Below are positions 29,783 to 46,209 of a stretch of DNA of 64,000 nucleotides, in pieces. Positions within the stretch are counted from its first letter, which is position 1; the number at the start of each line of letters is the position of its first letter. Location: NCBI GenBank assembly GCA_963845755.1, contig CAWJTV010000029.1, positions 352,001 through 416,000 on the forward strand, read 5' to 3'. Both the position numbers and the translations under genes were made by a program. The notes below the pieces were generated by a model. That model made no database searches. It was not told the origin of the DNA and was given only the letters and a program-made list of their open reading frames with translations. The stretch is from an uncultured Planctomycetota bacterium (GTDB taxonomy: Bacteria > Planctomycetota > Planctomycetia > Isosphaerales > Isosphaeraceae).

Positions 29783-29975
29783 GATTCCCCGTTCGTGCTT
29801 GGCAAACGTCCCCAGCCATGGTAATCTGTACGTTAATAATAACGAACTGATAATGAGTAGCGCCCCTGACGCATAGCGACTTCAACCACCTGCTGAGCAG
29901 CATCAAGGCCCTGTCGCCGGAACAGCTGCGCCAGTTCCGCCGGCAGCTCGACCGCCAGCTCGCCCAGCCGAAGAA
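29783..29975 (+). repeat. Direct repeat copy 1 (promoter plus antitoxin 5' end); copy 2 at 32563-32750
   Basis: CTTGGCAAACGTCCCCAGCCATGGTAATCTGTACGTTAAT...GACGCATAGCGACTTCAACCACCT...CAGCTCGACCGCCAGCTCGCCCAGCCG shared by both copies. Confidence 0.9.
29799..29827 (+). promoter_or_regulatory. Sigma70-like promoter TTGGCA-N17-TAATCT
   Basis: Identical copy at 32580-32608; variant TTGGCA-N17-TAGTCT at 33178-33206; each precedes an antitoxin gene. Confidence 0.65.
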
Positions 29976-30131
29976 ACGCCCCGCTTCGGTCAAGGCCGCC
30001 GCTGACGTTGAGGAAACCGCCTACGACGTGGCCAGCCGCGCGGGCTGATCGGCTGCTTCAAGGGCGCGCCGCGCTCACCCACCGACCTCGCCACCAACCC
30101 GAAGCACATGGAAGGCTTTGGACGTGATTAG
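29866..30131 (+). CDS. Putative VapB-like antitoxin (frameshifted; start codon damaged)
   Basis: THSDFNHLLSSIKALSPEQLRQ...AGLIGCFKGAPRSPTDLATNPKHMEGFGRD*; overlaps the PIN gene start. Confidence 0.6.
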
Positions 30132-31258: not shown

Positions 31259-32247
31259 CAACTTATTCCATTTGGAACGTAAGTCCTTGTCGATTCACGA
31301 TCCGCACAGCATTGATCAGCAGTTTGGCCCAGACCCAACGCCACACCCGCCACGACCGGCGCACCCAGGCCGGCAGCGGACCCAGGCCGCCACCGAAGGA
31401 GGTCGCCTGGCCGAAGGATCGCTCGATCGCGCCGCGCATCGCGTAGAGGCTCTTCCCGAAATCTCCCTGCAACAGCTCGATGCAGCGGAGGCGGTACGGG
31501 CTTTGGCGGCGGTGTCCCAGTCCGGCCTTGGGGTCCTCGCGCGGGGCTACCAACTGGTAGCCCGCGGCGCCCGCCGCGTCGAAGACCGGGTTGGCGTCGT
31601 ACTCGCCATCGCCCAGCACGTAGCCACCGCCGCCGCAGTCGGCCAATTCCGGCAGCAACTGCTCGGCGGCCTTGGTCTCGGCGACATTCAGCGGTGTGAT
31701 CGAACACACCTCGGGCATCGGACGGTTGCTCCAGACGGCGTGCAATTTGTAGCCCTTGGCGATCTTGCCGGCGCCGTGGCCATTGCGGGCATCCGGATCG
31801 TGACTGGCACCACCAACCGGCAAGGGCTTACCGTCGAGGATCTGTACCAACCGCGGGGGGACTACATCGCGGAGCCGCGTCGCCAAAGTCCGCATGAGGA
31901 CGCCCACGGCCAAGCTCCGGAGTCGTCGGCTCAGAGTCGAGGGCGCGGGCAAACGACCCGGCTGGAGCGTCGTGGTCTTCCAGTGCCGAGGATCACAAGC
32001 CCAGCAGGCCGGTCGATCGTGAAGGGCGGCCCACAGGTGGACCAGGACCAAGATGTGGGGCTGGTAGGAGACGTTGACCTGGCGGATCGAGCCACCCACC
32101 GCCATGACGAGGTGATACAGTTGCGGCCAGAGTTCCAGTTCCATAGTTGCCCTCCTCTGAGGATTGTCTCTACTTCCATACATAGATACGATCCTGGGAG
32201 GGAAATTGTTCTGACATAAAGACTTGCGACCTAAATGGAATAAGTTG
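31259..32247 (-). mobile_element. 989-bp IS (DDE, IS4/IS5/IS982-like) inserted into the MITE hairpin
   Basis: TIR CAACTTATTCCATTT / AAATGGAATAAGTTG; GTT duplicated at 31256-58 and 32248-50. Confidence 0.9.
31263..32144 (-). CDS. DDE transposase
   Basis: PSTLSRRLR, ILDGKP, GYKLH, LGDGEYD, YAMRGAIERSFG. Confidence 0.9.
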   Translation of the reverse strand: MELELWPQLYHLVMAVGGSIRQVNVSYQPHILVLVHLWAALHDRPACWACDPRHWKTTTLQPGRLPAPSTLSRRLRSLAVGVLMRTLATRLRDVVPPRLVQILDGKPLPVGGASHDPDARNGHGAGKIAKGYKLHAVWSNRPMPEVCSITPLNVAETKAAEQLLPELADCGGGGYVLGDGEYDANPVFDAAGAAGYQLVAPREDPKAGLGHRRQSPYRLRCIELLQGDFGKSLYAMRGAIERSFGQATSFGGGLGPLPAWVRRSWRVWRWVWAKLLINAVRIVNRQGLTFQME

Positions 32248-32487
32248 GTTGCCCCGGGCTGGTTTGTCGGGGCCCCTTCGGGGCGATTCGTGGCGGCTTC
32301 GTGGTCACCAATTCGCGGCTTCCTGATCGGTCGGCGCGCGAAATCCGGATGAACCATTAATAGCCAAAAGCCTCCCACACGAAGCAGGCGGCACCGCCCA
32401 CCTCGGCCACGACCGCCGGAATCACCTCTGCACCGCCTGACCGGATCACCGCCGGCAACACCCCGCCGTCCATCTGTCCGTCCCTCC

Positions 32488-32536
32488 CTCGCCGGTTATC
32501 CTTGATAACGTCCTTTATCAAGGACGACCCGGCGAG
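32488..32536. other. dif-like tyrosine recombinase core site 1
   Basis: TCCTTGATAA CGTCCT TTATCAAGGA within a longer CTCGCCGG..CCGGCGAG palindrome. Confidence 0.65.
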
Positions 32537-32647
32537 ACAAGCAGCGATGCTTGACCTGCCGCGATTCCCCCGCCCCGGCTTGGCAAACGTCCCCAGCCAT
32601 GGTAATCTGTACGTTAATGATAACGAACTGATGATGAGTACCGCCCC

Positions 32648-32967
32648 GTGACGCATAGCGACTTCAACCACCTCCTAAGCAGCATCAAGGGCCTGTCGCC
32701 GGAGCAGCTCCGCCAGCAGCTCGACCGCCAGCTCGCCCAGCCGGAGAAGCCCGCGCCCCGGCAGCCACCAAGACCGCCAAGCGCGTCAAGGCCGCAACGC
32801 CGCCCAAAAAGACGCTGACGCCTGCCGAGATAGATCAATACATGCTGAGCATCGGCTTGTTGAGTCAGTTGCCAGATACCGCCGCCGACTATGACGATCC
32901 CGACGATGAGCCGATCACCATCAAGGGCGAGCCGCTGTCGGAAACCATCATCCGCGAGCGGCGCTGA
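32648..32967 (+). CDS. Putative orphan VapB-like antitoxin (one frameshift ~32758)
   Basis: GTG start; THSDFNHLLSSIKGLSPEQLRQ...ITIKGEPLSETIIRERR*. Confidence 0.6.
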
Positions 32968-33230
32968 CGGTGGCCGCCGCCGATGAGGACAACATGCCGC
33001 TGAACAAACCAAACCGGTGAGCAGCTTGCCCCGGAACAACTCGCCCGGGCGAGAAGGGAACAGACGGCCTCCGGTGCGGGTAATATGGTCAATCCTTCCC
33101 ATGTCGCCGCGTCCAACGTCGGCCTGCATGACGCGTGCATGATCTTCGAGCGGCCGTAACCAACGGTGCCGCTTCGCTTGGCAACCGGCGGCGGTTGTGC
33201 TAGTCTGCAAATCATAGGAGCAAAACCTCT

Positions 33231-33485
33231 ATGACCATCCATTTATCGGGACAACGGGAGCGGATCGTTCTTTCCCTGCTGGCCGCCGGAAAATTCGCAT
33301 CGGCGGATGAGGTGATCGACGAAGCCTTGCGGCTGGTCGGGCAGCGGTATCAGGATGCGGATGCGGCGGCACAGCAGCTTGACAATCTCAGGCAATTGGG
33401 ACGCAAGCTGGACGCCATGCCGGTGGAATCCGCCGCCGATGGGCTGACCAACCGCGACCATGACCGGCTGCTCTACGGCAAATGA
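33231..33485 (+). CDS. Ribbon-helix-helix (ParD/CopG-like) antitoxin
   Basis: MTIHLS...AGKFASADEVIDEALRLV; C-terminal NRDHDRLLYGK; ATGA overlap with the PIN gene. Confidence 0.8.
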   Translation: MTIHLSGQRERIVLSLLAAGKFASADEVIDEALRLVGQRYQDADAAAQQLDNLRQLGRKLDAMPVESAADGLTNRDHDRLLYGK

Positions 33486-33883
33486 CGCCGATCTTCGTTG
33501 ATACCGGTGCATGGTTCGCCCGGTTCGTGCCGTCCGATCCCGACCATCCGGCCGCCCGCGAGTGGTTCGAGCACAATACGCATCCCTTGCTGACCACGGA
33601 TTACATCGTCGATGAATTGCTGACCGTGCTCAAGGTACGCGGCGAGTTTCAGCGTGCCCTGGAAGTCGGCCCCGCCTTGCTCAACGGCGATGTGTGCCAC
33701 CTCGAATGGGTGAGCCGGGCCGATGTGGCGAACGCCTGGAAGGTATTTTCCGCCTATCGGGAGAAAGGCTGGAGCTTCACCGATTGCATCAGCCGGGCCG
33801 TGATGGAACGGCTTGGCATCGCCACGGCGGTGGCGTTCGATGAGCATTTCCGCCAGTTCGGGACCGTCACCGTCCTGCCGTGA
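33482..33883 (+). CDS. vapC: VapC/PIN-domain toxin
   Basis: IFVDTGAW, TTDYIVDE, SFTDCIS, AFDEHFRQFG. Confidence 0.9.
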   Translation: MTPIFVDTGAWFARFVPSDPDHPAAREWFEHNTHPLLTTDYIVDELLTVLKVRGEFQRALEVGPALLNGDVCHLEWVSRADVANAWKVFSAYREKGWSFTDCISRAVMERLGIATAVAFDEHFRQFGTVTVLP

Positions 33884-34004
33884 CGGCAACCGGCCTGCCC
33901 GGTCGGAACCGTTATCCCCTCACCCTCGCCAACTGGCGCATCTGACGCCCGCCGCTGGTCGATCCTTCGTTTGCTGGACGCCGGACAGAGGACCCTGTGG
34001 GTGG

Positions 34005-34030
34005 TATCCGATAAAGGGCGTTATTGGATG
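34005..34030. other. dif-like tyrosine recombinase core site 2
   Basis: ATCCGATAA AGGGCG TTATTGGAT. Confidence 0.6.
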
Positions 34031-34047
34031 GACTGTCCACAATCCAC

Positions 34048-35139
34048 TTATGATTCTGGAAGCTTGTCAGCCTCTAGGTAGTTGGCGAGTTTGGCGACAA
34101 GCTTAGTTCGCTCCGAACTTGTGGCCAACTCCAGACCTGGCAAAAAATTCTCGTTTGTCTTTACGAATCGAGCAGTTCGGATGAGTATAGAACGAACATT
34201 ATCAATTGACCGATCTATAAAATTTTTGGCGATAATTGTTTGTTCCACCGGAATCTTGGTTCCGACAGCGTGAGCACCGTCGAAGTTACTTCTGATCACA
34301 ATAATTGGGATGATCTGACTCTCTATCTGAGCATCCGTGTATCCAAGAAGCCTGCACGTAGCCCTGATTTTATCATTTGTCTGACCAGGTGCCGCCTTAT
34401 TTACCAGTAATATTTCAAGACATTTTGCCAGATTTATAATAACTTCTGAATACATTTGGTATGGAGCTGAAATAACCTCATGAGGAGATAAAAAACGTAA
34501 CGCGTGCTGAAAATACACAGACGCCGTAATCAGACGCGGGCATGATTGAATCCACTGTTTTTGAAGATCAATTGCCTCAAATATTAACTTATCTCTGGTA
34601 TCCCTTGACAAAGGCAGGAGCCTGGCCATAAAAGCTTCTGGCGCTACCACTAACGTGAACTTAATTTGGTCGGCTATCTCTCCCTGAATCGCAACAACAT
34701 CAACAAATATACCAAATATTATTGATAACGAAGATGTTAAGGTTGAAACAATAAAATCAGTCGCTGCATGCAAATCATTCTGATTATTAATTATCAATTT
34801 ATACGTAAACTCACTGCCATTGACAGAGATCGTACGATCTGGCAACGTGTCCCAGTTGCCTGTCCCAGTTGCTGCAGGCAGAAATTCTGATGATTCTGAT
34901 GATAATACACCTGTATTTCTATCAATAGTTATCCGAGTGGGGCTGCCTACGATTCCCGTAACACGAGGTGACGTGGTTTCCGATGGTTCAAATAATTCCT
35001 TAGGTGCCAGTCTGCCTACAAGGGTAAGCACCGCCGGATATGTAAGGTGGTCCAAAGACCGAAGCGGTGGCGTCGAATCAATGGAAAGGTTTCGTTGTCG
35101 TACAAGAAAACATGGCATAGAATCACCTGCAGATCGCAT
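34048..35139 (-). CDS. Low-GC hypothetical protein with a putative C-terminal HEPN domain
   Basis: Visibly AT-rich; helical C-terminus with NLAKCLEILL and RSNFDGAH (Rx6H). Confidence 0.6.
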   Translation of the reverse strand: MRSAGDSMPCFLVRQRNLSIDSTPPLRSLDHLTYPAVLTLVGRLAPKELFEPSETTSPRVTGIVGSPTRITIDRNTGVLSSESSEFLPAATGTGNWDTLPDRTISVNGSEFTYKLIINNQNDLHAATDFIVSTLTSSLSIIFGIFVDVVAIQGEIADQIKFTLVVAPEAFMARLLPLSRDTRDKLIFEAIDLQKQWIQSCPRLITASVYFQHALRFLSPHEVISAPYQMYSEVIINLAKCLEILLVNKAAPGQTNDKIRATCRLLGYTDAQIESQIIPIIVIRSNFDGAHAVGTKIPVEQTIIAKNFIDRSIDNVRSILIRTARFVKTNENFLPGLELATSSERTKLVAKLANYLEADKLPES

Positions 35140-35192
35140 GACGAGGACTGTGAGACATCGAAGATGCTTCAGTTGCAGTCAGCGTACGTCCC

Positions 35193-36185
35193 TCAAATCG
35201 GAATCCGCTCGACGATGTTCCGCGTCACCCGCTTCTTCCTCCGGTCATAGAGCGTCGTCGTTCGCGGCTCCGCATGCCCGGCCAGATATTGCACGGCCTC
35301 CATCGGCACCCCCTGCTCCAGCAGCGAGGTGATCGCCGTCACCCGGAAGGAATGCGGCGACAGCCGCGACGGCAGCCCGGCATCCTTCAGCCGCCGCTTG
35401 ACCAGCTCGCAAATCCGCTCCGTGCCCAGCGGCTTGGCCGCCAGCTTCCGGCTCCGGCCGTTCGACGCCCTAAACAGCGGCGAATCCTTGGCCTCACCGG
35501 CGATGCCCGCCGCCTCGACATATGCCAGTATAAATTCCTCCAGGTCGTGCCGCACCGGGATTTCCCGGCTCTTGCCGCCTTTTTCCTGGAACCGCAGCAT
35601 GTATTGCTGGCCTGTCATGCTGAAAGTCGCCCAGCCGGAGCTTGGCCACCGCCCCGGCCCGGCAGGCGGTATAGGCCAGCGTGGCGAGGATCGCCCGGTC
35701 CCGCAGCCCGACCACATGGCCGGTCTATCTGACCGACCGCAGCAGCGTCGCGTCGGCCTGCTCGATGGTGATCTCCGGCGTCTTGCCCTCGATCACCTGA
35801 TCCTTGACGCCCCGCACCGACGACGCCGGGTTGAGGATGCAGACGTGCCGGTTCACCAGCCGGTCGAAGAAGCCACGAACGCCGCCAGATGCTGATTCCG
35901 CTTGGCGGGCGATCCGCCCAAGCCCACGAGGTACTGGCCGACCATGCCCGGCGTAATGGCCGCCAATGCCACCCCCTGCCCCTCGGCCCAGCCCAGGAAC
36001 GCCTTGACCGCCCGCAGATAGGCTTTCTGCGTGTGCGGGTTATGGTGCTCGGCATAGAAGAATTCCTCCCAGGCGAAGCGGCCGCCCCCCCGGCCCGCTC
36101 GACCAGATCCGGCAGCGTCGCCGCCGCACCCGTTGCTGGTACGCTCACCGCCGACGCTGTGACCAGTTCCGTGCTCATCACTCAT
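35193..36185 (-). CDS. Tyrosine recombinase with N-terminal SAM-like domain (several frameshifts)
   Basis: NPHTQKAYLRAV, GLRDRAILATLAYTACR, EKGGK, SPHSFR, LAGH, TTTLYDR (R-K-H-R-H-Y catalytic set). Confidence 0.9.
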
Positions 36186-36555
36186 CGCCCCGCTTCGCGC
36201 ACACCATCTCCTCGACCATCAGCCGGGACAGCTTGACCGTGGGATACATGTCATCTTCGAAGAGTCCATTATCCCGCCCCTCCCGCTTCACGACCTTGTC
36301 CATCAGCTTGCCCATCCTGGCCGCGGGATACCAGTCTCGCGTGACCGGATCGATCCGGATGGTCAACGTCCGGTCCGTCGGATGCATCAGCCTCTGACCC
36401 TCCCAATACCAGCCCGCATCAAGATAAACTTGAATGCTCGCTTCCTCATCGACCCCTCGGCGTTCCCGCCCCGCCCGTTCTTCCAGTGTGAGTCCATCGC
36501 CCCCGCTTTGATCGCCGCGCATGTATGCCGCCCCCTTTCTGATTCCATCATCCAT
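36178..36555 (-). CDS. Small hypothetical protein co-oriented with and overlapping the recombinase start
   Basis: 125-aa ORF whose stop overlaps the recombinase ATG region. Confidence 0.55.
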   Translation of the reverse strand: MDDGIRKGAAYMRGDQSGGDGLTLEERAGRERRGVDEEASIQVYLDAGWYWEGQRLMHPTDRTLTIRIDPVTRDWYPAARMGKLMDKVVKREGRDNGLFEDDMYPTVKLSRLMVEEMVCAKRGDE

Positions 36556-36577
36556 CCCGGCACTGCGTTGTCAATCC

Positions 36578-36611
36578 CTAGCTGTAGATAAAGGGGATTA
36601 TCTACGCCTAG
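36578..36611. other. dif-like tyrosine recombinase core site 3, upstream of the recombinase operon
   Basis: CTAG-CT-GTAGATAA AGGGGA TTATCTAC-GC-CTAG. Confidence 0.7.
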
Positions 36612-36916
36612 TGCCTCCGCTCACCAGGATGCACGTTGTTAACTTCCCCGGTATTTGTCACCCTCTTGCCCCGGTATTTGTCACCCTGCCTGGAAGAACC
36701 TGGCCATGACTTTTCCGGGCAACCAAGATGAGGCGTCGATCCCGGCGCGGCCGTGAGGGCACTTCGGCGGTAAGCGAAAATGGGTCTGCACAGACGGGTA
36801 ACCACCGGCCGCAGCAGACCCGGCGTTCCGGGATAGCCGGGGCGATTACTTTCGGGTGCAACGGCTGATCCATACTTGACCCGTTGCAGATACTTTGTTG
36901 GCCTTTCATTGATCGA

Positions 36917-37492
36917 TCACGCCTCGACGGTTTCCTCGTAGACGCGCCGGCCCGTAGGAGACCAATACCGGTAGGCGGTACACGTCCATTTCGTCATGAG
37001 CCGCCGAAACCCGTAGAACTGCATCACCTCCACCCGAGGAAAAGGTGGCGCGCCAGGCCGCCAAACGGTATGGACTGACGCTTGGCGGTGTCGCCGTGTC
37101 CGTGAGGGAATAGCCATACGAAAGATGAGGTCCCGAGACGATGGTCGGCCATCTGTCGCAATCCAGCTTTGTGACCCTGGACACCAGGCCCACTGCCCGA
37201 ACCAGTCGAACTCCGGAAGGCCCGTGAAACTGAAACCGTTGGCCCCGTAGCCCGATGGCCAGGCGAAGCTTCCGTCCGCAGTCCATCGGGCTTTATTCGG
37301 CGCCATCCAGTGAGAGCACCGACCAATCTGCGTGAGGACGCGGTGGGGGCCAGCCACTAGCCGGGCCAACGCTTCGGCATCGGCGTAGATAGTGTCGAGC
37401 ACGACCGGCCACAGCGTGGGATCATCCTCTTCGCCAAGCAGCGGGGCGATTACCGGCTCGAACAAAGGCCAGAATTCGAGATGCTCTGCCAT
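36917..37492 (-). CDS. Hypothetical cargo protein (Trp-rich)
   Basis: ATG after GGAGG; 191-aa ORF inside transposon 1. Confidence 0.55.
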   Translation of the reverse strand: MAEHLEFWPLFEPVIAPLLGEEDDPTLWPVVLDTIYADAEALARLVAGPHRVLTQIGRCSHWMAPNKARWTADGSFAWPSGYGANGFSFTGLPEFDWFGQWAWCPGSQSWIATDGRPSSRDLIFRMAIPSRTRRHRQASVHTVWRPGAPPFPRVEVMQFYGFRRLMTKWTCTAYRYWSPTGRRVYEETVEA

Positions 37493-38311
37493 GTAGCCTC
37501 CCCTGCCAAGAATTCCAGTCAACCGGCGCAAGCCTTGGCGTGTGTTAATCCTCGACTCTAATCTACCCGTTACCCTTCCTCGCCGCGCCCAGGACCGAGT
37601 GTCAAGTTTCGATTATCGATCACTGTTTGTGCTCGGTCTGCGTCTATTCACCCTTTACACCTGGGACATTTGTGGGACATCCCTTGGGCGATCGCCTGCT
37701 GGCCGGAGATTCGGCGCGGTCAATCCCCAAATGATAACAGTCCGCACCGCTCCTTGCGTCTGACAAGCACTCGCATGACGACGTATCCGCGACGCGGAGT
37801 CGCAAGGGTCAAACCACCTCCGCCAGGAATCAAGAGCCGATTGCGTCATCCATTATCGAAAGGCGCAACAATTACGCCTTTCATAGGCATCCTCCGATCA
37901 TCCGGTTTTCGCTGCAGCCTGTTTTTGGCCGCTCAGCAGCTTCTTACCGTCCGGCCTGAGCTTCCCTTGGGATCGACATGGCGGTAGAGCGTCTGGCGGG
38001 TGATTCCCAGCTCGGCACATAGCTCGCCCACTTTCGTCTCCGGCTCCCCCATCGACGCCATTGCCAGGCGGAGCTTGGCGGCGGTCATCTTATAGGGTCG
38101 GCCGCCGTTCCTCCCCCGGCGCGGGCGGCGGCCATGCCCGCCTTGGTCCGCTCGACGATCAATTCGCGCTCGAAATCGGCCAGGGCGGCGAAGATGCCGA
38201 AGACCAGCTTGCCGCTCGGGGATGTGGTGTCGATGCTCGCCCCGTGGCCGCTCAGGACCTTGAAGCCGATGCCGCGCACGGTCAGATCGTGCACGGTGTT
38301 GACCAAGTGTC

Positions 38312-39220
38312 TCAGAGGGGATTTGGAAAATTAAGCGGCCTGGAAATCTCGACCCCCTCATTTTGTGAAACTAGGGAATATTGGTGCGTCGGTTCCAAAC
38401 GTCGGAGCATAATATGAATCATTGCCATCTGAATCATAGCCTCACTCGTCTCGGTCAATCCCTCGTAGTCCTTACTCAGTCGGCGATATCGTCCCAGCCA
38501 GCCGAACGTCCGCTCCACCACCCACCGCTTCGGCAGCAGCTTGAACCCTTTGGTATCGTCCGTCCGCTTGATCACCTGCAACTCCCAACCGCATTCGCTC
38601 TCGACCCAGGCGATCAGCCATCCCTTCTCATAGATGCCATCGGCCCAGATGACCTTCAACCGCGGACAGCGACCCTTGACCTTCTCCAGCACCGGCTTGG
38701 CCCCGTGGTAGTCCTGCACCCCTGCGGACGTCACGACCACCGCGATCAGCAGGCCCAGGGTGTCCACCAAGATATGCCGCTTCCGGCCCTTCACCTTCTT
38801 CCCCGCATCGAAGCCCTGGATCCCGCCCACCTCGGTTGTCTTGACCGACTGGCTGTCCAGGCTGGCTGCCGACGGTTCGGGATCGCGTTCCGACGCCTCC
38901 CGTACCATCGGCCGCAACGCGTCATGAATCCGCGCGATCGTCCCGGTGCGCCGCCACTGACTGAAGTAGTCGTAGGCGGTCCCGGGCGGGGGAAAGTCAT
39001 GAGGCAGCAGGTCCCAGGCACAGCCGGTGCGGAGCACGTAGAGGATGGCGTTGAGGACCTCTCGCATGTCGGTCGGTGCGCGGTCGTCCGCCGCCCGGCG
39101 GCGGGGGCAACAGGAGTGGATCATTTCCCATTGGGCATCGGTGAGGTCGGTCTCGTAGGGGGTTCGCGATTGCGTGGTCGGGGTCCGCGGAGGTCGCTGA
39201 GGCTTGTGGGCTCGTGGCAT
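38312..39220 (-). CDS. IS5-family transposase
   Basis: YETDLTDAQW, LRTGCAW, DSQSVK, KGRKRHILVDTLG, RWVVERTFGWL; stop codon formed by the TSD. Confidence 0.9.
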   Translation of the reverse strand: MPRAHKPQRPPRTPTTQSRTPYETDLTDAQWEMIHSCCPRRRAADDRAPTDMREVLNAILYVLRTGCAWDLLPHDFPPPGTAYDYFSQWRRTGTIARIHDALRPMVREASERDPEPSAASLDSQSVKTTEVGGIQGFDAGKKVKGRKRHILVDTLGLLIAVVVTSAGVQDYHGAKPVLEKVKGRCPRLKVIWADGIYEKGWLIAWVESECGWELQVIKRTDDTKGFKLLPKRWVVERTFGWLGRYRRLSKDYEGLTETSEAMIQMAMIHIMLRRLEPTHQYSLVSQNEGVEISRPLNFPNPL

Positions 39221-39329
39221 GGCGTCATCAGAGGAAAAGGATGTCGGAGTTCAAGGAGGCCAACGACCCGTTTCTACGTCAATGCACACCGAAGGTTCGC
39301 CTAATCCCTGTAAGTTCCCAGATCCCCTC
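38315..39329 (-). mobile_element. IS5-family (IS1031-like) insertion sequence
   Basis: TIR GAGGGGATTTGGAAAATTA / TAAGTTCCCAGATCCCCTC; TCA duplicated (38312-14, 39330-32). Confidence 0.9.
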
Positions 39330-39584
39330 TCAGATCGCGGCCCAGCCGATCGAGCTTCCAGACGACCAGCGTGTCGCCCTGCCGCAACGCCTTCAGGCAG
39401 GCCGCCAGGCCGGGCCGGTCATCCCGCTTGCCGGAGGCGGCATCTTCATAGAGGTGTCGGGCATCAACCCCGGCTGCCAGCAGGGCATCGCGTTGCAGGT
39501 CGGTCACCTGGCTGCCGTCCGCCTTGCTCACCCGCATGTAGCCGACCAGCATGTCCCCTCCCTCCCATTGACGGATCAACCGAT

Positions 39585-39700
39585 TTTCCATGTCACTTAA
39601 ACGTTCGGTTGCGTGACGAACGGCTTTGGGCGGCATCATCGCCGCAAATCCGTCACGTAACCTGTCACATTTTCTAAGTTGCATAAACCATCGCCATAGT
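39585..39700. promoter_or_regulatory. Probable res site of the TniR-like resolvase
   Basis: TGTCACTTAAACGTTCGGTTGCGTGACG and CGTCACGTAACCTGTCACAT motifs directly upstream of the resolvase. Confidence 0.55.
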
Positions 39701-39805
39701 TGATTGAGTGACAGGCCATTCCGGGGGGGTGACAAATAGCAGGGAAAGAAGGATGACAAATAGCGAGTCACTTAACACATGCGTGCTGTTAACTTCCCCG
39801 AAATG

Positions 39806-39926
39806 GGTTCTCCCGCACTTTTGATGATCCACGACCGCCAACTCACACCGAAATCCCCATCTTGACGCGATTCTCGGTCGTTTCGGCCCGGAGTGGCACC
39901 ATCCTCATCAAGAGTGCGGAAGAACC
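39806..39926. mobile_element. 121-bp MITE inserted inside the left end of transposon 2
   Basis: TIR GGTTCTCCCGCACTTTTGATGA / TCATCAAGAGTGCGGAAGAACC (2 mismatches); flanks ..GAAATG / AGTAAATG. Confidence 0.8.
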
Positions 39927-39996
39927 AGTAAATGTCACCCTTTTTGTCCCGCTATTTGTCACCCTGCTTCAAAGAAGCCAGCCATGAGGTTTCCTT

Positions 39997-40568
39997 TCAA
40001 GATGCGTTGATGCCGGCCTCGCGCACATAGGCATAGAGCGTCGGCTTGCTGATGCCGACCGTGTGGCAGATTTCGGCGACGGTGTGCTTCCGCTGCCGGT
40101 ACAGATCGACTGCCAATGATTTCTGCCTGGCATCGAGCGACTTCGGCCTGCCACCGGTACGCCCCCTGGCCCTGGCGGCGGTCAGGCCGGCGTGGGTGCG
40201 TTCGCGGATCAGGTTGCGTTCAAATTCGGCCAGTGCCCCGAAGACATGAAATACCAGCTTGCCGCCCGGTGTGGTGGTGTCGATGGCCTCTTGCACGCTC
40301 TGGAAGCCGATGCCCTGCCGTTCCAGCTCCGACATCAGCTCGATGAGATGTTTGAGTGACCGGCCCAGCCGGTCGAGCCGCCACACCACCAGCACGTCAC
40401 CTTGCCGCAGCAGCTCCGCGCCCGTTCCAGGCCGGAGCGTTGTTGCTTGCTGCCGCTGGCGGTGTCCTCGATGATCTTTTCGCATCCGGCTTTGGTCAGG
40501 GCGTCTTTCTGCAAATCGGGGTTCTGTTCGGAGGTGGAAACGCGGGCATATCCTATACGCATGGCCAT
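39997..40568 (-). CDS. Serine resolvase/invertase (frameshift ~40420)
   Basis: RIGYARVST, WRLDRLGRS, FERNLIRERT, GGRP, ISKPTLY helix-turn-helix. Confidence 0.9.
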
Positions 40569-40581
40569 ATTTTCCACGATT

Positions 40582-40717
40582 GGTAAAGAAACTCGCCGAG
40601 TTGCGGCGACTTCTTACGTTGATTTCTTTACCGAGTTTTCTTACTCCAAAACTCGGGAGAAAGCAAGCGCGACCAAATCCGGCGCGGGAAGTAAGAAAAA
40701 CGAGGGTTTTCTTTACC
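40582..40717. promoter_or_regulatory. res site with repeated GTAAAGAAA/TTTCTTTAC half-sites
   Basis: GGTAAAGAAACTC, TTTCTTTACCGAGTTTTCTTAC, GTAAGAAAAACGAGGGTTTTCTTTACC. Confidence 0.65.
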
Positions 40718-40825
40718 AGGCGTTGGGTAGCGGCAAACGCGAGATAGTGTGCTTAGCATTGAGTTCGTGCGACAAATGTCAGATAATGCCCTCGTCCTGA
40801 GCATCGCACTCGCGAGGGCCGCCAC

Positions 40826-42241: not shown

Positions 42242-43196
42242 TTATGCCGTCCCGATCACCAGGCTTTCACGTGCCGCTTCCACCACCGGAAGTGCGACCT
42301 TCTCCAGCTTGTTGATCTCCAGGACGCGGCCGATCTGCGTCAGCAGGCGGTGGAGCAGCCGGAAATTCCCGCCCGTGATGCGGATGATCGCGGCGATGCT
42401 CTCCTCATCGGCGATGCCGCCGTCGGGCATGGGCGCGAGGGCAGGCCACCATCGCTCCTGGAGCAGTTGCCGCACTTCCTCGCGGGACAGGGGCTTGAAC
42501 TCATGAACGAACCCGATCCGGGAATAGAGCTGCGGGTAGCGGGCGAGCTGTTTTTCAAGCCCCGGCATGCCGATCAGCACCATCCCGATGCCGCCCTGGT
42601 CGAAGATGGCGCATCTGCTCCAGCCCGGTCATCTTCAGGCGGTCGGCCTCGTCGATCAGGATCAGGGCCGTGGGATCGGGCTGGGCACGCTCCGCTCCTT
42701 CATGGCTGTCGAAGATTCGCCGCCACGCATCCTGCCGGCGGGCGACCTCCTCGGGAGGCTCGTCGAAGCCATTCAGGCCGGTGCGGCGGTGGTACTCATA
42801 CAGGGCCTCGACCTCTCGATTCGCGGATTCCAAGCGGGGCCGTTCCTCGCGGCGGATTTCCTCCAGGAAGAAGCCTCGCAGCTTGCCCCGCAACCGCTCG
42901 ATATCGTTCGGCAGCCGGCCGGGAGACGTGACGACCACCGGCGGCGTGTAGAAGACGACGGCGCTGCCCTTGACTTGCTCCAGCGTGACCGTGCCGCCCG
43001 GCGCATCGGGCCGGTAGCGTTCGATCGTATCCCAGTTGGCATAATGCCGGGCGGACAGCGTCTTGCCGACGCCCGGCGGCCCGTAGCACAGGCCGATGTA
43101 TTGATAGCGGCGGCAGGCGTCGCAGAATTCCCGGAAGCGACGGTGTTGCTTCGTCTCGATGAATCCTTGGCCCGTGACGCTACTCGTCACAGGCAT
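42242..43196 (-). CDS. tniB: TniB/TnsC-like AAA+ ATPase (frameshift ~42610)
   Basis: Walker [10 protein letters not shown], Walker [30 protein letters not shown]. Confidence 0.85.
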
Positions 43197-44561
43197 ACCG
43201 CTTCAGCTTGACCGGCGACGGCACGGGTTGCGGCGGCTCAACCGCCGGAGTCTTCTCGCCGGCATCCCACCGTTTGGCTTCGATCAGGGAATCCACCACG
43301 CGGCGGCGATCTACCAGCGTCTGGCGGAGTTCGCGGCGGCGGCGGTTCCGGGCGCTGACGATGTCGCGGAGGGGGACGGTCGCGCCCGCCAGTTCCTGGC
43401 ACACCGCCCGGCAGAGGAATCGGCCCTGGTGGAACACCCGGACCTCCGCCACGTCGCGCGGATCGTAACGCAGCATGACCTCCTCGCCGACATAGGCGGC
43501 GAGCGTCGGGTCGATGTAACGCATGCCCATGAAGCGGATGCCATCCTGCTGCACCCGCCGCGTCCTGGCGACGGTGAGCAGCAACAAATCGAGCCGCTCC
43601 AGCGAATCCGGCATCTGGGGCAGGAAGCCGCCCGCATCCCAGCGGGCCTGCGGTGCCTGGCCGGTCGTGCTGTGCGGCGTGACCAGGTATTCCCCGATCA
43701 GGTAGGTTTCGATCTCGCCGGCCAGGTCCGCTGCGTCAGCACGGCGGCCCGGTCCGCCTGCGTCCGGGAATAGCCGGGCAGCCGCGAAAGGAGCACCTGG
43801 GAGAGCGAGTCGAAGAACCGCTCGATCTTTCCCCGCCCGCGTGGCCGCGCGACGCTGGAGAAGATCAGCCGGATTTTCAGGTCGGCCGCCACCTGCTCGA
43901 TATGCCGCGAGGTGAAATCGCTGCCGTGATCGGTATAGAGCACCTGCGGGATGCCGCAGACGTGCCAGCCCGGTTGCGGCTTCCGCCAGATCGCCTGCCG
44001 CAACGCCAGGGCCGTCTGGATCGCCGAGGGGGCCGACAACGAGAGGAAATAGCCCGCCACCGCCCGGCTGTAGTCGTCGAGGATGATCGTCAGCCAGGGC
44101 CGGCGGGCGGTGCCGTCGCCGTCCTTGACGAGGATGTCGAGTTCGGTGTGATCGGCCTGCCAGATGGCATTGGGAGCGTCCGCCTCGCGGCGATGGACCA
44201 GGTCGAAGGATTCGCTATACGCTTTCGACCCCTCATGGGCCAGCGTCAGCAGGGCCGGTTCCAGCTTGCCGATCACGGCATGGACCACCTTGTAGCTCGG
44301 CGGCTCCTGCCCCAGCTTCTTCGCCGCCTCGGCCACCTCGCGATGGATGGTAGCCGTCGGCAGCCTGGGCTTTCGCAACGCCAGCCCCTCGATGAGTTGC
44401 TGGAGGGCAGGCGTCAGCTTCCGCTTGTCCTTGTCGTCCCGCTCCTTGCGGGCCAGGCCGGTCAATCCTTCCCGGCGGTAGCGATCGACCCAGCGGCGGG
44501 CGGTGCGGAGGACGATGCCTTGTTCCCGGGCGATTTGAGTCAGAGGGACGCCATCTTCCAG

Positions 44562-46209
44562 GAGCCTGTCTGAGAACTCTGACCCGCATTGTCGCGGATG
44601 AGCCAGGTGTACGGACGGAGTCGGTTCGGGCACAATGCGGGTTTCCGACCTTTCCTCTACCTTGGTGCCTGATCGGGGAGCCGAATCATGGAGGGCCGAC
44701 GCAAGACCTACCGAGCCTGGGACCCTCGACAGAATGGTCACGACGCCATCTCGCCGCCGGAGGCGCTCCCCGAAGACGATCTGGTGTTCTTCCTCATCGA
44801 TCTCATCCCGCAGCTTGACCTCACTCCGTTCCACAAGCATTATGCCCAGGAACTGCGCGGCCAACCCCCCTTCGACGTGACCATGATGGTGACGCTGCTG
44901 GTCTATGCCTACTGCATCGGTGTCCGCTCCAGCCGGAAGATCGCCGCCGCCTGTGAGCGCAATCTGGCGTTCCGAGCCATTGTCGGTATCGATCGGCCCG
45001 ACTTCCGCACTATCAGCGATTTTCGCAAGATCCACCTGGCGGCACTGCGGCCCCTGTTCCTTGAGGTGCTGCGCATCGCGGGCGAGTTGGGGATGGTCAA
45101 GTTGGGGAACCTGTCCACCGACGGGACCAAGATGGGGGCCAACGCCTCGCGGCACAAGGCGATGAGCTACGGCTACATGGGGAAGGAAATCGAACGGCTG
45201 AAGGCCGAGATCGAGCAAATGCTCCAGGAAGCTGAGCAGCTCGACGCCGAGCAAGATGCGGCGTTGGGGAGCCGTCGCGGCGACGAACTGCCGGCGGAAT
45301 TGAAGCGGCGTGACGATCGGTTGGCCAAGATTCGCGAGGCGAAAGCGCGGCTGGAAGCCGAGGCGGCTGCCCGGGCGGACGAAGAACAACGCCGCCGGGA
45401 TCAGGCCCAAGCCCAGCGGGAAGCGGACGGCCGCAAACGCCGGGGCAAGCCACCGGCTCCGATCGATCCGAGTCCCGAGGAGAAGGTGCAAATGAACTTC
45501 ACCGACCCCGAAGCGAAGATCATGAAGCAGAGCAACAAGGGGTTCGATTATTCGTACAACGCCCAGGCGGTGGTGGATGGCGCGCACCAGATCATCGTCG
45601 CCCCGGACGTGACCTCAGCGCCCAACGACAAGGAACAGGCGGTGCCGATGGCGCAAGCAGCCTTAAACAATCTGGAGGCGGCTGGGATCCCGCGGCCGAT
45701 GGCCAGCGACGGGACCCCGACGCCGATTCCGAACACGGCGGACACGGGCTATTTCAGCGCGAAAGCGGTGGCGGGACTGGAGCAGCTCGGCATGGACCCG
45801 TATGTGGCTGTTGAGCGTCAGAAGCACCACGTGGCTGCGGTGACGTCGGCGACGACGGCTCCCGCACCGGAAGCGAGTGTGAACGAGAAGATGCAGCACA
45901 AACTGCGTACGGCGGCCGGCAAAGCCCTGTACGCGGCGCGGAAGCAGATCGTCGAACCGGTCTTCGGCCAGATCAAATTCGCGCGGGGGATTCGCCAGTT
46001 TCTGCTCCGTGGCTTGGAGAAAGTCTCCGCCGAGTGGCAACTGATCGGCCTGACCCACAATCTACTGAAGATTTGGCGCCACACCTGCGCCGCCGCCGAG
46101 AGTTGAGTGGGATAGTGCGCGCCGAGGGCGGGGCCGAGGCCGAAATGGCCAAGGCCCGGTGGGAACCCAGGGGCCAAGGCGAGACACGGGCGAATTCTCG
46201 GACAGGCTC
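44562..46209 (+). mobile_element. IS1182-family insertion sequence
   Basis: TIR GAGCCTGTCTGAGAACTC / GAATTCTCGGACAGGCTC; flanks CCAG / CTAG. Confidence 0.9.
44688..46106 (+). CDS. IS1182-family transposase
   Basis: RSSRKIA, PDFRTISDFRK, DGTKMGANAS, NFTDPEAKIM, YNAQAVVD, ADTGYFS, VEPVFGQIK. Confidence 0.95.
   Translation: MEGRRKTYRAWDPRQNGHDAISPPEALPEDDLVFFLIDLIPQLDLTPFHKHYAQELRGQPPFDVTMMVTLLVYAYCIGVRSSRKIAAACERNLAFRAIVGIDRPDFRTISDFRKIHLAALRPLFLEVLRIAGELGMVKLGNLSTDGTKMGANASRHKAMSYGYMGKEIERLKAEIEQMLQEAEQLDAEQDAALGSRRGDELPAELKRRDDRLAKIREAKARLEAEAAARADEEQRRRDQAQAQREADGRKRRGKPPAPIDPSPEEKVQMNFTDPEAKIMKQSNKGFDYSYNAQAVVDGAHQIIVAPDVTSAPNDKEQAVPMAQAALNNLEAAGIPRPMASDGTPTPIPNTADTGYFSAKAVAGLEQLGMDPYVAVERQKHHVAAVTSATTAPAPEASVNEKMQHKLRTAAGKALYAARKQIVEPVFGQIKFARGIRQFLLRGLEKVSAEWQLIGLTHNLLKIWRHTCAAAES

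Follow-up and report, generated by a model that had tools for sequence, protein, structure and literature searches.

Three palindromic sites, apparently from three tyrosine recombinase lineages, in a mobile-DNA island of an uncultured planctomycete

A 64,000-nucleotide stretch of the genome of an uncultured Isosphaeraceae bacterium from soil (Planctomycetota; assembly GCA_963845755.1, contig CAWJTV010000029.1, positions 352,001 to 416,000; hereafter the window) contains three palindromic sites of the type GATAA-N6-TTAT (sites 1-3), which lie among a tyrosine recombinase gene, toxin-antitoxin (TA) genes and a HEPN-like gene. In relatives, such sites are linked to recombinase genes, their arms are lineage-specific, synteny breaks at them and chimeric sites occur. 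On balance we favour the reading that the window is an accreted, partly decayed stack of resolvase modules with a cross-compatible family of sites, for which the resolution of multimers or cointegrates would be the basic role; binding, catalysis, resolution, autoregulation and the cointegrate route are predicted here from sequence comparison.

Palindromic sites in the window

The three palindromes with a 6-bp spacer are present as the preliminary description had them, with GATAA cores at 32504, 34010 and 36587 (Table 1), spacers reading CGTCCT, AGGGCG and AGGGGA, and sites 1 and 2 inverted while sites 2 and 3 are direct. Eight to ten inner bases are palindromic and the spacers are related, sites 1 and 2 being mismatched at one of six positions and sites 2 and 3 at two of six (i.e. 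the two bases beside one cleavage position). With at most one mismatch allowed, a core scan of the window gave 8 strand-matches versus 1.58 expected, a number reached in 1 of 100 shuffles. In the whole 14.27-Mb genome there are only 20 places (25 strand-matches) with the exact 15-mer GATAA-N6-TTAT; three of them are sites 1-3, within 4.1 kb, and five lie on contig C40. A fourth, degenerate site had also been proposed; it is ruled out as a full site, since it has no TTAT right arm, lies 4 kb off inside a separate Tn5053-like element, and is one of a type of half-site (GATAA-Y-S-CCCT) found 14 times in the genome, site 3 among them.

Table 1. Features in and around the site cluster (window coordinates)
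Feature	Coordinates	Strand	Remarks
IS4/IS5-type DDE transposase	31263..32378	-	Pfam DDE_Tnp_1; cuts the lineage-B recombinase
Lineage-B tyrosine recombinase, 5' stump	32371..32473	-	about 34 codons; cut by the insertion sequence
Site 1	32496..32527		lineage B; arms TCCTTGATAA/TTATCAAGGA, spacer CGTCCT; between recombinase stump and divergent antitoxin
Antitoxin-like open reading frame	32648..32967	+	frameshifted; PIN partner of the C40 copy missing here
ParD-like antitoxin	33231..33485	+	weak Pfam ParD and TIGR02606 matches, under cut-off
PIN (VapC-type) toxin	33482..33883	+	Pfam PIN, E 3.6e-13
Site 2	34002..34033		lineage E; left arm and spacer TGGTATCCGATAA-AGGGCG; right arm diverged
363-aa cargo gene	34048..35139	-	AT-rich (GC 0.42); end 19 bp from site 2
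Lineage-A tyrosine recombinase	35193..36185	-	SAM-like N-terminus and Phage_integrase; catalytic motifs kept; 7 small indels as assembled
125-aa open reading frame	36178..36555	-	between site 3 and recombinase; 32 homologues, no Pfam
Promoter, sigma-70-like (TTGACA)	36547..36574	-	directly adjoins site 3; faces recombinase operon
Site 3	36579..36610		lineage A; minus-strand reading TAGGCGTAGATAA-TCCCCT-TTATCTACAGCTA; same site precedes close homologues
Tn5053/Tn7-like element end	36637..36690	+	43 bp from site 3 centre
'Site 4'	40778..40800	+	left half only; not counted as a site

Linkage of sites to recombinase lineages

Judged by their arms, sites 1-3 stem from three recombinase lineages (B, E and A, respectively). 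Close homologues of the window enzyme likewise have site 3 upstream, at a distance of 64-1100 bp. On contig C40 of the same genome, the core of site 1 lies 21 bp before a 328-aa recombinase, opposite an antitoxin-PIN pair, and window positions 32371-32974 are 83% identical to this locus (G000:C40:102746-102134). In the metagenome locus L128, the left arm and spacer of site 2 form part of a perfect 13-6-13 palindrome, 45 bp before a 340-aa recombinase of a third type; in the window, the cognate gene and -35 box of site 2 are both missing. The promoter match beside site 3 is weak when taken alone (3 found versus 2.0 expected).

In a tree of 60 proteins, the arms of the upstream sites follow the clades, and outer-arm similarity rises with protein identity (0.82, 0.58, 0.38 and 0.34 by identity band, 38 loci). 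A homologue of the recombinase is carried by 65 of the 121 genomes of the order. Thirty loci were selected by protein match alone, 16 of which have an upstream site; the other 14 comprise 12 from one site-less subclade and 2 without upstream sequence. In a set partly fetched for holding sites, 55 proteins had 1 kb of context or more; 37 of these have a site within 1.9 kb, versus a background of 0.006 per 1.9 kb under the same rule, and 37 of 41 do so when the site-less subclade and two host Xer candidates are set aside. The claim that the sites are tyrosine recombinase cores tied to this recombinase family, and not to chance, is upheld. A motif derived from the sites observed had 239 matches, spread over 86 of the 121 genomes, versus about 40 for the reversed control (hand count). 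Spacers of upstream sites end in CT in 33 of 38 cases; the invariance of spacer positions 5-6 within the chimera and arm statistic is a filter artefact and does not count as evidence.

The family also occurs on proteobacterial plasmids. Of 136 plasmid records with a homologue, nine were examined (8 Pseudomonadota, 1 Planctomycetota), all of which have exactly one site in the examined stretch, always upstream, with the spacers TGTCCT, CGTCCT, CCTCCT or TGCCTT (8 of 9 ending in CCT) and, in six cases, TA genes annotated at most 4 kb away. Among plasmids, the closest matches are those of planctomycetes, at 66-75% identity. A tyrosine resolvase-type gene with an upstream site and an adjoining TA pair is found in the C40 copy and at L056, L058, L059, L164 and L169. 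One site per locus, at a promoter and next to TA genes, looks like a resolution module. It had been supposed that one local enzyme owns all sites, which finds no support: the sites are those of three lineages, their spacers differ and the plasmid relatives usually have a single site.

Following these results, we propose that each palindrome serves one lineage of small, Xer-like plasmid or island tyrosine recombinases as its core recombination site and probably as its operator too. Two sites, each with symmetric arms of 13 bp and an asymmetric spacer of 6 bp, would be brought together by a homotetramer of the enzyme, which would resolve multimers or cointegrates of the carrying replicon; the TA genes beside the site are under the same promoter or opposite to it. 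Since the lineages have the inner arms (ATAA/TTAT) in common and the spacer nearly always ends in CT, sites of different lineages may sometimes cross-react, which would fuse replicons and swap the genes that flank a site. The window would then be a chromosomal hotspot of mobile DNA in which modules B (gene cut by an insertion sequence), E (gene lost) and A (gene frameshifted as assembled) have piled up and decayed; it is itself a decayed example and not the best model locus.

Several further observations concern the family. At L080:7835-11363, the recombinase of the site-less subclade comes after tniA/tniB-like genes and is possibly the tyrosine resolvase of a Tn5053-like element. Recombinase genes of the family are split near codon 283-290 by insertions at L073:10240-15080, L085:7632-10339 and L069, the insert at L073 encoding a large serine recombinase. 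A lineage-D site with its own broken recombinase lies elsewhere in the same genome (G000:C26:165862-167333, L010). DNA matches to a Sphingobium site on E. coli and Salmonella plasmids were rejected, as they have an imperfect core next to an open reading frame that does not encode a recombinase.

Rearrangement at the sites

That synteny should break at the sites is borne out in relatives. The window and L063 (same genus) have site 3, the 125-aa open reading frame and the recombinase in common at 86%, and homology ends at 36611. A stretch of 611 bp is common to loci L042 and L056 at 95.6% (with its last 70 bp identical) and stops 2 bases into the spacer, beyond which the arms are of different types. 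L010 matches L043 in the gene on one side of its site and L082/L083 in the recombinase on the other. L155 joins a lineage-E arm and its promoter flank to a lineage-D arm and flank, and at L050 and L042:7511 there are half-sites, the break lying in the spacer. Sites of lineages E and D lie on a promoter-like stretch, which is followed by a recombinase at some loci and by cargo at others. Together, the site-bound breaks, the chimeric sites and the direct pairs described below indicate that cargo reassorts at the sites. Alternatively, the palindromes could be operators only, for autoregulation of recombinase and TA genes, the rearrangements being due to insertion sequences and homologous recombination. 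Sites that overlap promoter-like boxes, in a region full of insertion sequences and transposon ends, would fit this, yet neither the homology break inside the spacer nor the chimeric arms are explained by it, nor is a conserved, oriented 6-bp spacer with its CT end, so we regard an operator-only role as improbable.

Pairs of sites bear on another explanation, close to the preliminary description, in which a dedicated cassette system exists: taking sites 2 and 3 for attL and attR, the enzyme of lineage A would excise and insert the unit of recombinase and cargo, and would shuffle TA and defence modules between all the sites. An upstream site is present at 20 of 28 lineage-A loci. At 14 of the 28 there is a second site at most 6 kb downstream, which is direct in 12, inverted in one and unclassifiable in one, so that the unit of the window (site 3, recombinase, cargo, site 2) is typical. 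Over all 32 adjacent pairs (at most 6 kb apart), 21 are direct and 11 inverted; segments without recombinase lie between direct sites at L081, L091 and L184, and the cargo is rich in TA and defence-type genes. Against such a cassette system, spacers are identical in only 2 of the 21 direct pairs, most of which are mismatched at spacer position 1, 2 or 4, and sites 2 and 3 themselves differ beside one cleavage position. Of the six pairs with identical spacers among the 32, four are inverted and closely flank the recombinase gene alone. Most paired sites are whole palindromes that belong to different lineages, not reciprocal attL/attR hybrids, and no second site is nearby at 14 of the 28 lineage-A loci and at all nine plasmid loci. 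No cluster of more than 5 sites (i.e. no long array) was found. A dedicated cassette system is therefore rather unlikely, and the claim that modules are built between the sites finds neither an empty allele nor a long array, the plasmid relatives being mostly single-site.

The reading as a stack of cross-compatible resolvase modules has points to contend with as well. Linkage alone would yield the same correlation between arms and proteins. Strict chimeras make up only 4 of 36 imperfect sites, versus about 1 expected from random double changes; this statistic is modest, and the evidence from flanks weighs more. Pair counts are inflated, since many multi-site loci were fetched for holding sites. 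A change of cargo is also seen right at the stop codon of the recombinase, a position without a site, which means that other processes contribute too. A DNA search of the 121 genomes with positions 32360-35190 returned only TA-gene matches (i.e. no empty allele), with no match across site 1 or site 2 outside this genome, and no filled/empty pair was found, the flanks of the island not being adjacent in the same-genus genome. Lastly, no circle or inversion junctions were seen in shallow read data: the best run contained 0.09 of the words, and four runs gave only short contig pieces, none of which bridges a site.

A recombinase alone between inverted sites with identical spacers is found at G000:C40:102602-103685 and at L070, L071 and L074-L076; this layout may act as a self-inverting switch, with no flipped copy among them. 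Inversion of the unit of site, recombinase and site was considered and rejected, as three G052 copies keep one orientation to their common flank. A small contig the size of a plasmid (L091:3863-10284) has a DEAD-box helicase gene enclosed by two direct sites, after which come the recombinase and a gene with a PIWI domain (Argonaute-like).

Host XerC/XerD and dif-type sites

The genome has a second class of site, GTCYGATAA-N6-TTATGTTCG, with free spacers and asymmetric arms, whereas sites 1-3 are symmetric. In five complete or near-complete relatives the dif-type site is asymmetric, four of the five reading GTCTGATAA-N6-TTATGTTC, and this type is likely the chromosomal dif of the complete relatives. 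For Planctomycetes, dif is listed as not predicted in the portion of an earlier survey available to us (PMC3025954). Candidates for XerC and XerD are encoded elsewhere in the genome; they score 331 and 327 bits against TIGR02224 and TIGR02225 of NCBIfam, just below the cut-offs of 335 and 330, while P0001, the lineage-A paralogue on contig C33, scores 93 and 89 bits. In the tree the candidates fall outside the recombinase family, and they have no such site.

Sites 1-3 might nonetheless be pdif-like targets of host XerC/XerD, with the neighbouring recombinase as a passenger. The 6-bp spacer and the inner arms ATAA/TTAT are as in dif, the arm of site 2 resembles the XerC-side arm of the host, and the genome has, besides its XerC/XerD candidates, several host-type dif copies near mobile DNA. 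Set against this are the asymmetry of the relatives' dif-type site, the symmetry of sites 1-3 and their lack of the XerD arm TTATGTT (i.e. of the distinct XerC and XerD arms of pdif). Moreover, complete plasmids of relatives bear both site classes at separate places, and the sites track the family recombinase across phyla. We consider host targeting very improbable. What stands of the proposed pdif-like system is its outcome, which resembles pdif shuffling; its sites are without a XerD arm and unlike the host dif type.

At least seven host-type dif copies with differing spacers were seen (G000:C24:7806, C39:272952, C40:96676, C40:108008, C40:123503, C41:370858 and C5:428055), as well as one at L010:15982. 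Some lie beside TA genes or recombinase fragments, and it is possible that they are true planctomycete pdif modules.

Gene content of the island

The lineage-A recombinase is frameshifted as assembled. Compared with its closest relative, it has seven gap openings in 925 bp and no nonsense substitution, and its private changes (9 non-synonymous, 11 synonymous) are inside the range of six intact relatives. Near-identical repeat copies in the assembly differ by 1.8 gap openings per kb (866 pairs), and one 78-base read contig matches the gene with one other letter and without 3 inserted bases. We lean towards assembly error as the cause of the frameshifts. The paralogue P0001 is intact. The family presumably carries the CDD label INT_C_like_6.

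Between sites 1 and 2, the TA block that had been described was recovered as an orphan antitoxin-like open reading frame and a ParD-like/PIN pair. An antitoxin role of the former is suggested by its position before the PIN gene at C40, where the copy has no Pfam match. A second, shorter copy (88%) of the start of this gene, without a site, lies at 29783-29999, at the left edge of the island. The transposase that cuts the lineage-B gene sits in a small dispersed repeat that ends near 32357 and has several genomic copies at 98.6-99.7%.

The cargo between sites 2 and 3 had been called a HEPN gene, which agrees with its structure matches and a retained R-x6-H motif. Five homologues were found, and R276 and H283 are invariant in all six sequences. 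No Pfam, NCBIfam or PADLOC match was obtained for the 363-aa protein, and Foldseek against the PDB gave none at E<=0.001. For the C-terminal residues 189-324, the top seven VIA-align matches are HEPN or related nucleotidyltransferase-partner domains (Z 9.2-7.9), the best being 1ylm (Z 9.2, rmsd 3.9, 127 aligned), followed by the HEPN toxins 8xdj and 7ae2; the comparison is only moderate, as it concerns a helical domain in a model with pLDDT 65. With moderate confidence, the C-terminal half is predicted to have a HEPN fold, and the protein may serve in defence. There is also a MauJ-like lead.

The 125-aa open reading frame was considered as a fixed TnpT-like helper and rejected, since cargo at this position varies across loci and, among the loci compared, only the window and L063 have it in common. 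At three independent loci (window 36637; L063 at about 9018, L038:998; G000:C33:210671), the end of a Tn5053/Tn7-like element (TGTTAACTTCCCC type) is 30-50 bp away from a lineage-A site position, which, with a small n, suggests res-site hunting at a tyrosine-recombinase site. In the window, tniA/tniB-like genes lie at 42242-45587, and two serine resolvase genes (37933-40577; the first of these two states is interruption by an IS5-type element, the other a frameshift) lie inside Tn5053-like ends at 36637, about 39776, 39787 and 46416. Synteny with a chromosome of the same genus extends along the left flank of the island up to about 29550, and the counterparts of the right flank are on other contigs.

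Novelty and implications

The site family is apparently undescribed. A published description of the target site of this recombinase family was not found, and six exact 14-base core strings gave 0 matches in the literature, figures, supplements and most subscription papers being outside the search. Tyrosine recombinases have been reported as hub genes of planctomycete plasmids (10.1101/2024.01.22.576637, in the part available). The gene allows the site to be predicted, which makes dozens of natural pairs of enzyme and site with differing arms testable; these could serve as loxP-like tools and as a study set for the evolution of arm specificity. If recombination across lineages is efficient, TA and defence genes could move between replicons without host Xer or transposases.

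A bolder and tentative idea, which we think may well fail, is that the family is a cross-phylum, element-encoded counterpart of the Xer/pdif network, with outer arms private to each lineage, for its own resolution and autoregulation, and a shared inner arm and CT-ending spacer. Any plasmid or island with such a site could then dock and swap cargo via cointegrates despite partial spacer mismatch, and an incoming gene would be put under the promoter that overlaps the site.

Comparison with known systems

A close parallel is IntA of Rhizobium etli p42a/pSym, which forms and resolves cointegrates (PMC4928290). As here, a plasmid tyrosine recombinase has a palindromic site with an asymmetric centre upstream of its own gene (at 108 bp), and the att arms TCCGATAA/TTATCGGA nearly equal those of site 2. 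Membership in the IntA/attA-attD system is nevertheless ruled out by weak protein homology (26% over 58 aa, i.e. not a close homologue) and by an ATAA-TTAT centre of 7 bp versus 6 bp here, and the available part of that account does not describe a multi-lineage site family.

Acinetobacter pdif sites (PMC13141974) likewise have two arms around a 6-bp spacer and lie among TA and accessory genes. According to the sections available, pdif exchange takes place through sites with identical or near-identical spacers and probably proceeds via cointegrates, matches at 5 of 6 spacer positions being sufficient. By this tolerance, inversion between sites 1 and 2 would be allowed, but excision between sites 2 and 3 not clearly so. 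In contrast to pdif sites, which are asymmetric, used by host XerC/XerD and inversely oriented around modules, the sites described here are symmetric, mostly direct (the window having one inverted and one direct pair, with no alternating C/D modules) and tied to element-encoded recombinases.

The TnpI/irs modules with TA pairs of Tn5401 and TnBth4 are alike by layout, with a tyrosine resolvase, an upstream site that overlaps promoters and a TA pair that is divergent from the resolvase or next to it, and the order TA-res-resolvase is known for Tn3-family elements (both from the available part of PMC7157771). No Tn3 transposase was found in the 24 window open reading frames scanned, transposon ends not being part of that search; at one plasmid locus, a Tn3 transposase lies 3.8 kb away. 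The portion of a recombinase classification that was available (PMC8138268) did not place the family. Integrons do not match either, with 37 bits for the integron integrase model TIGR02249 (cut-off 265) and site clusters of at most 5.

In Cre/loxP and in multimer resolution of the ResD/rfsF type, one enzyme acts on symmetric arms around an asymmetric spacer, with typically one site per replicon. Unlike in these systems, the spacer here is kept across phyla while the arms are lineage-specific, so that chimeras between lineages are possible.

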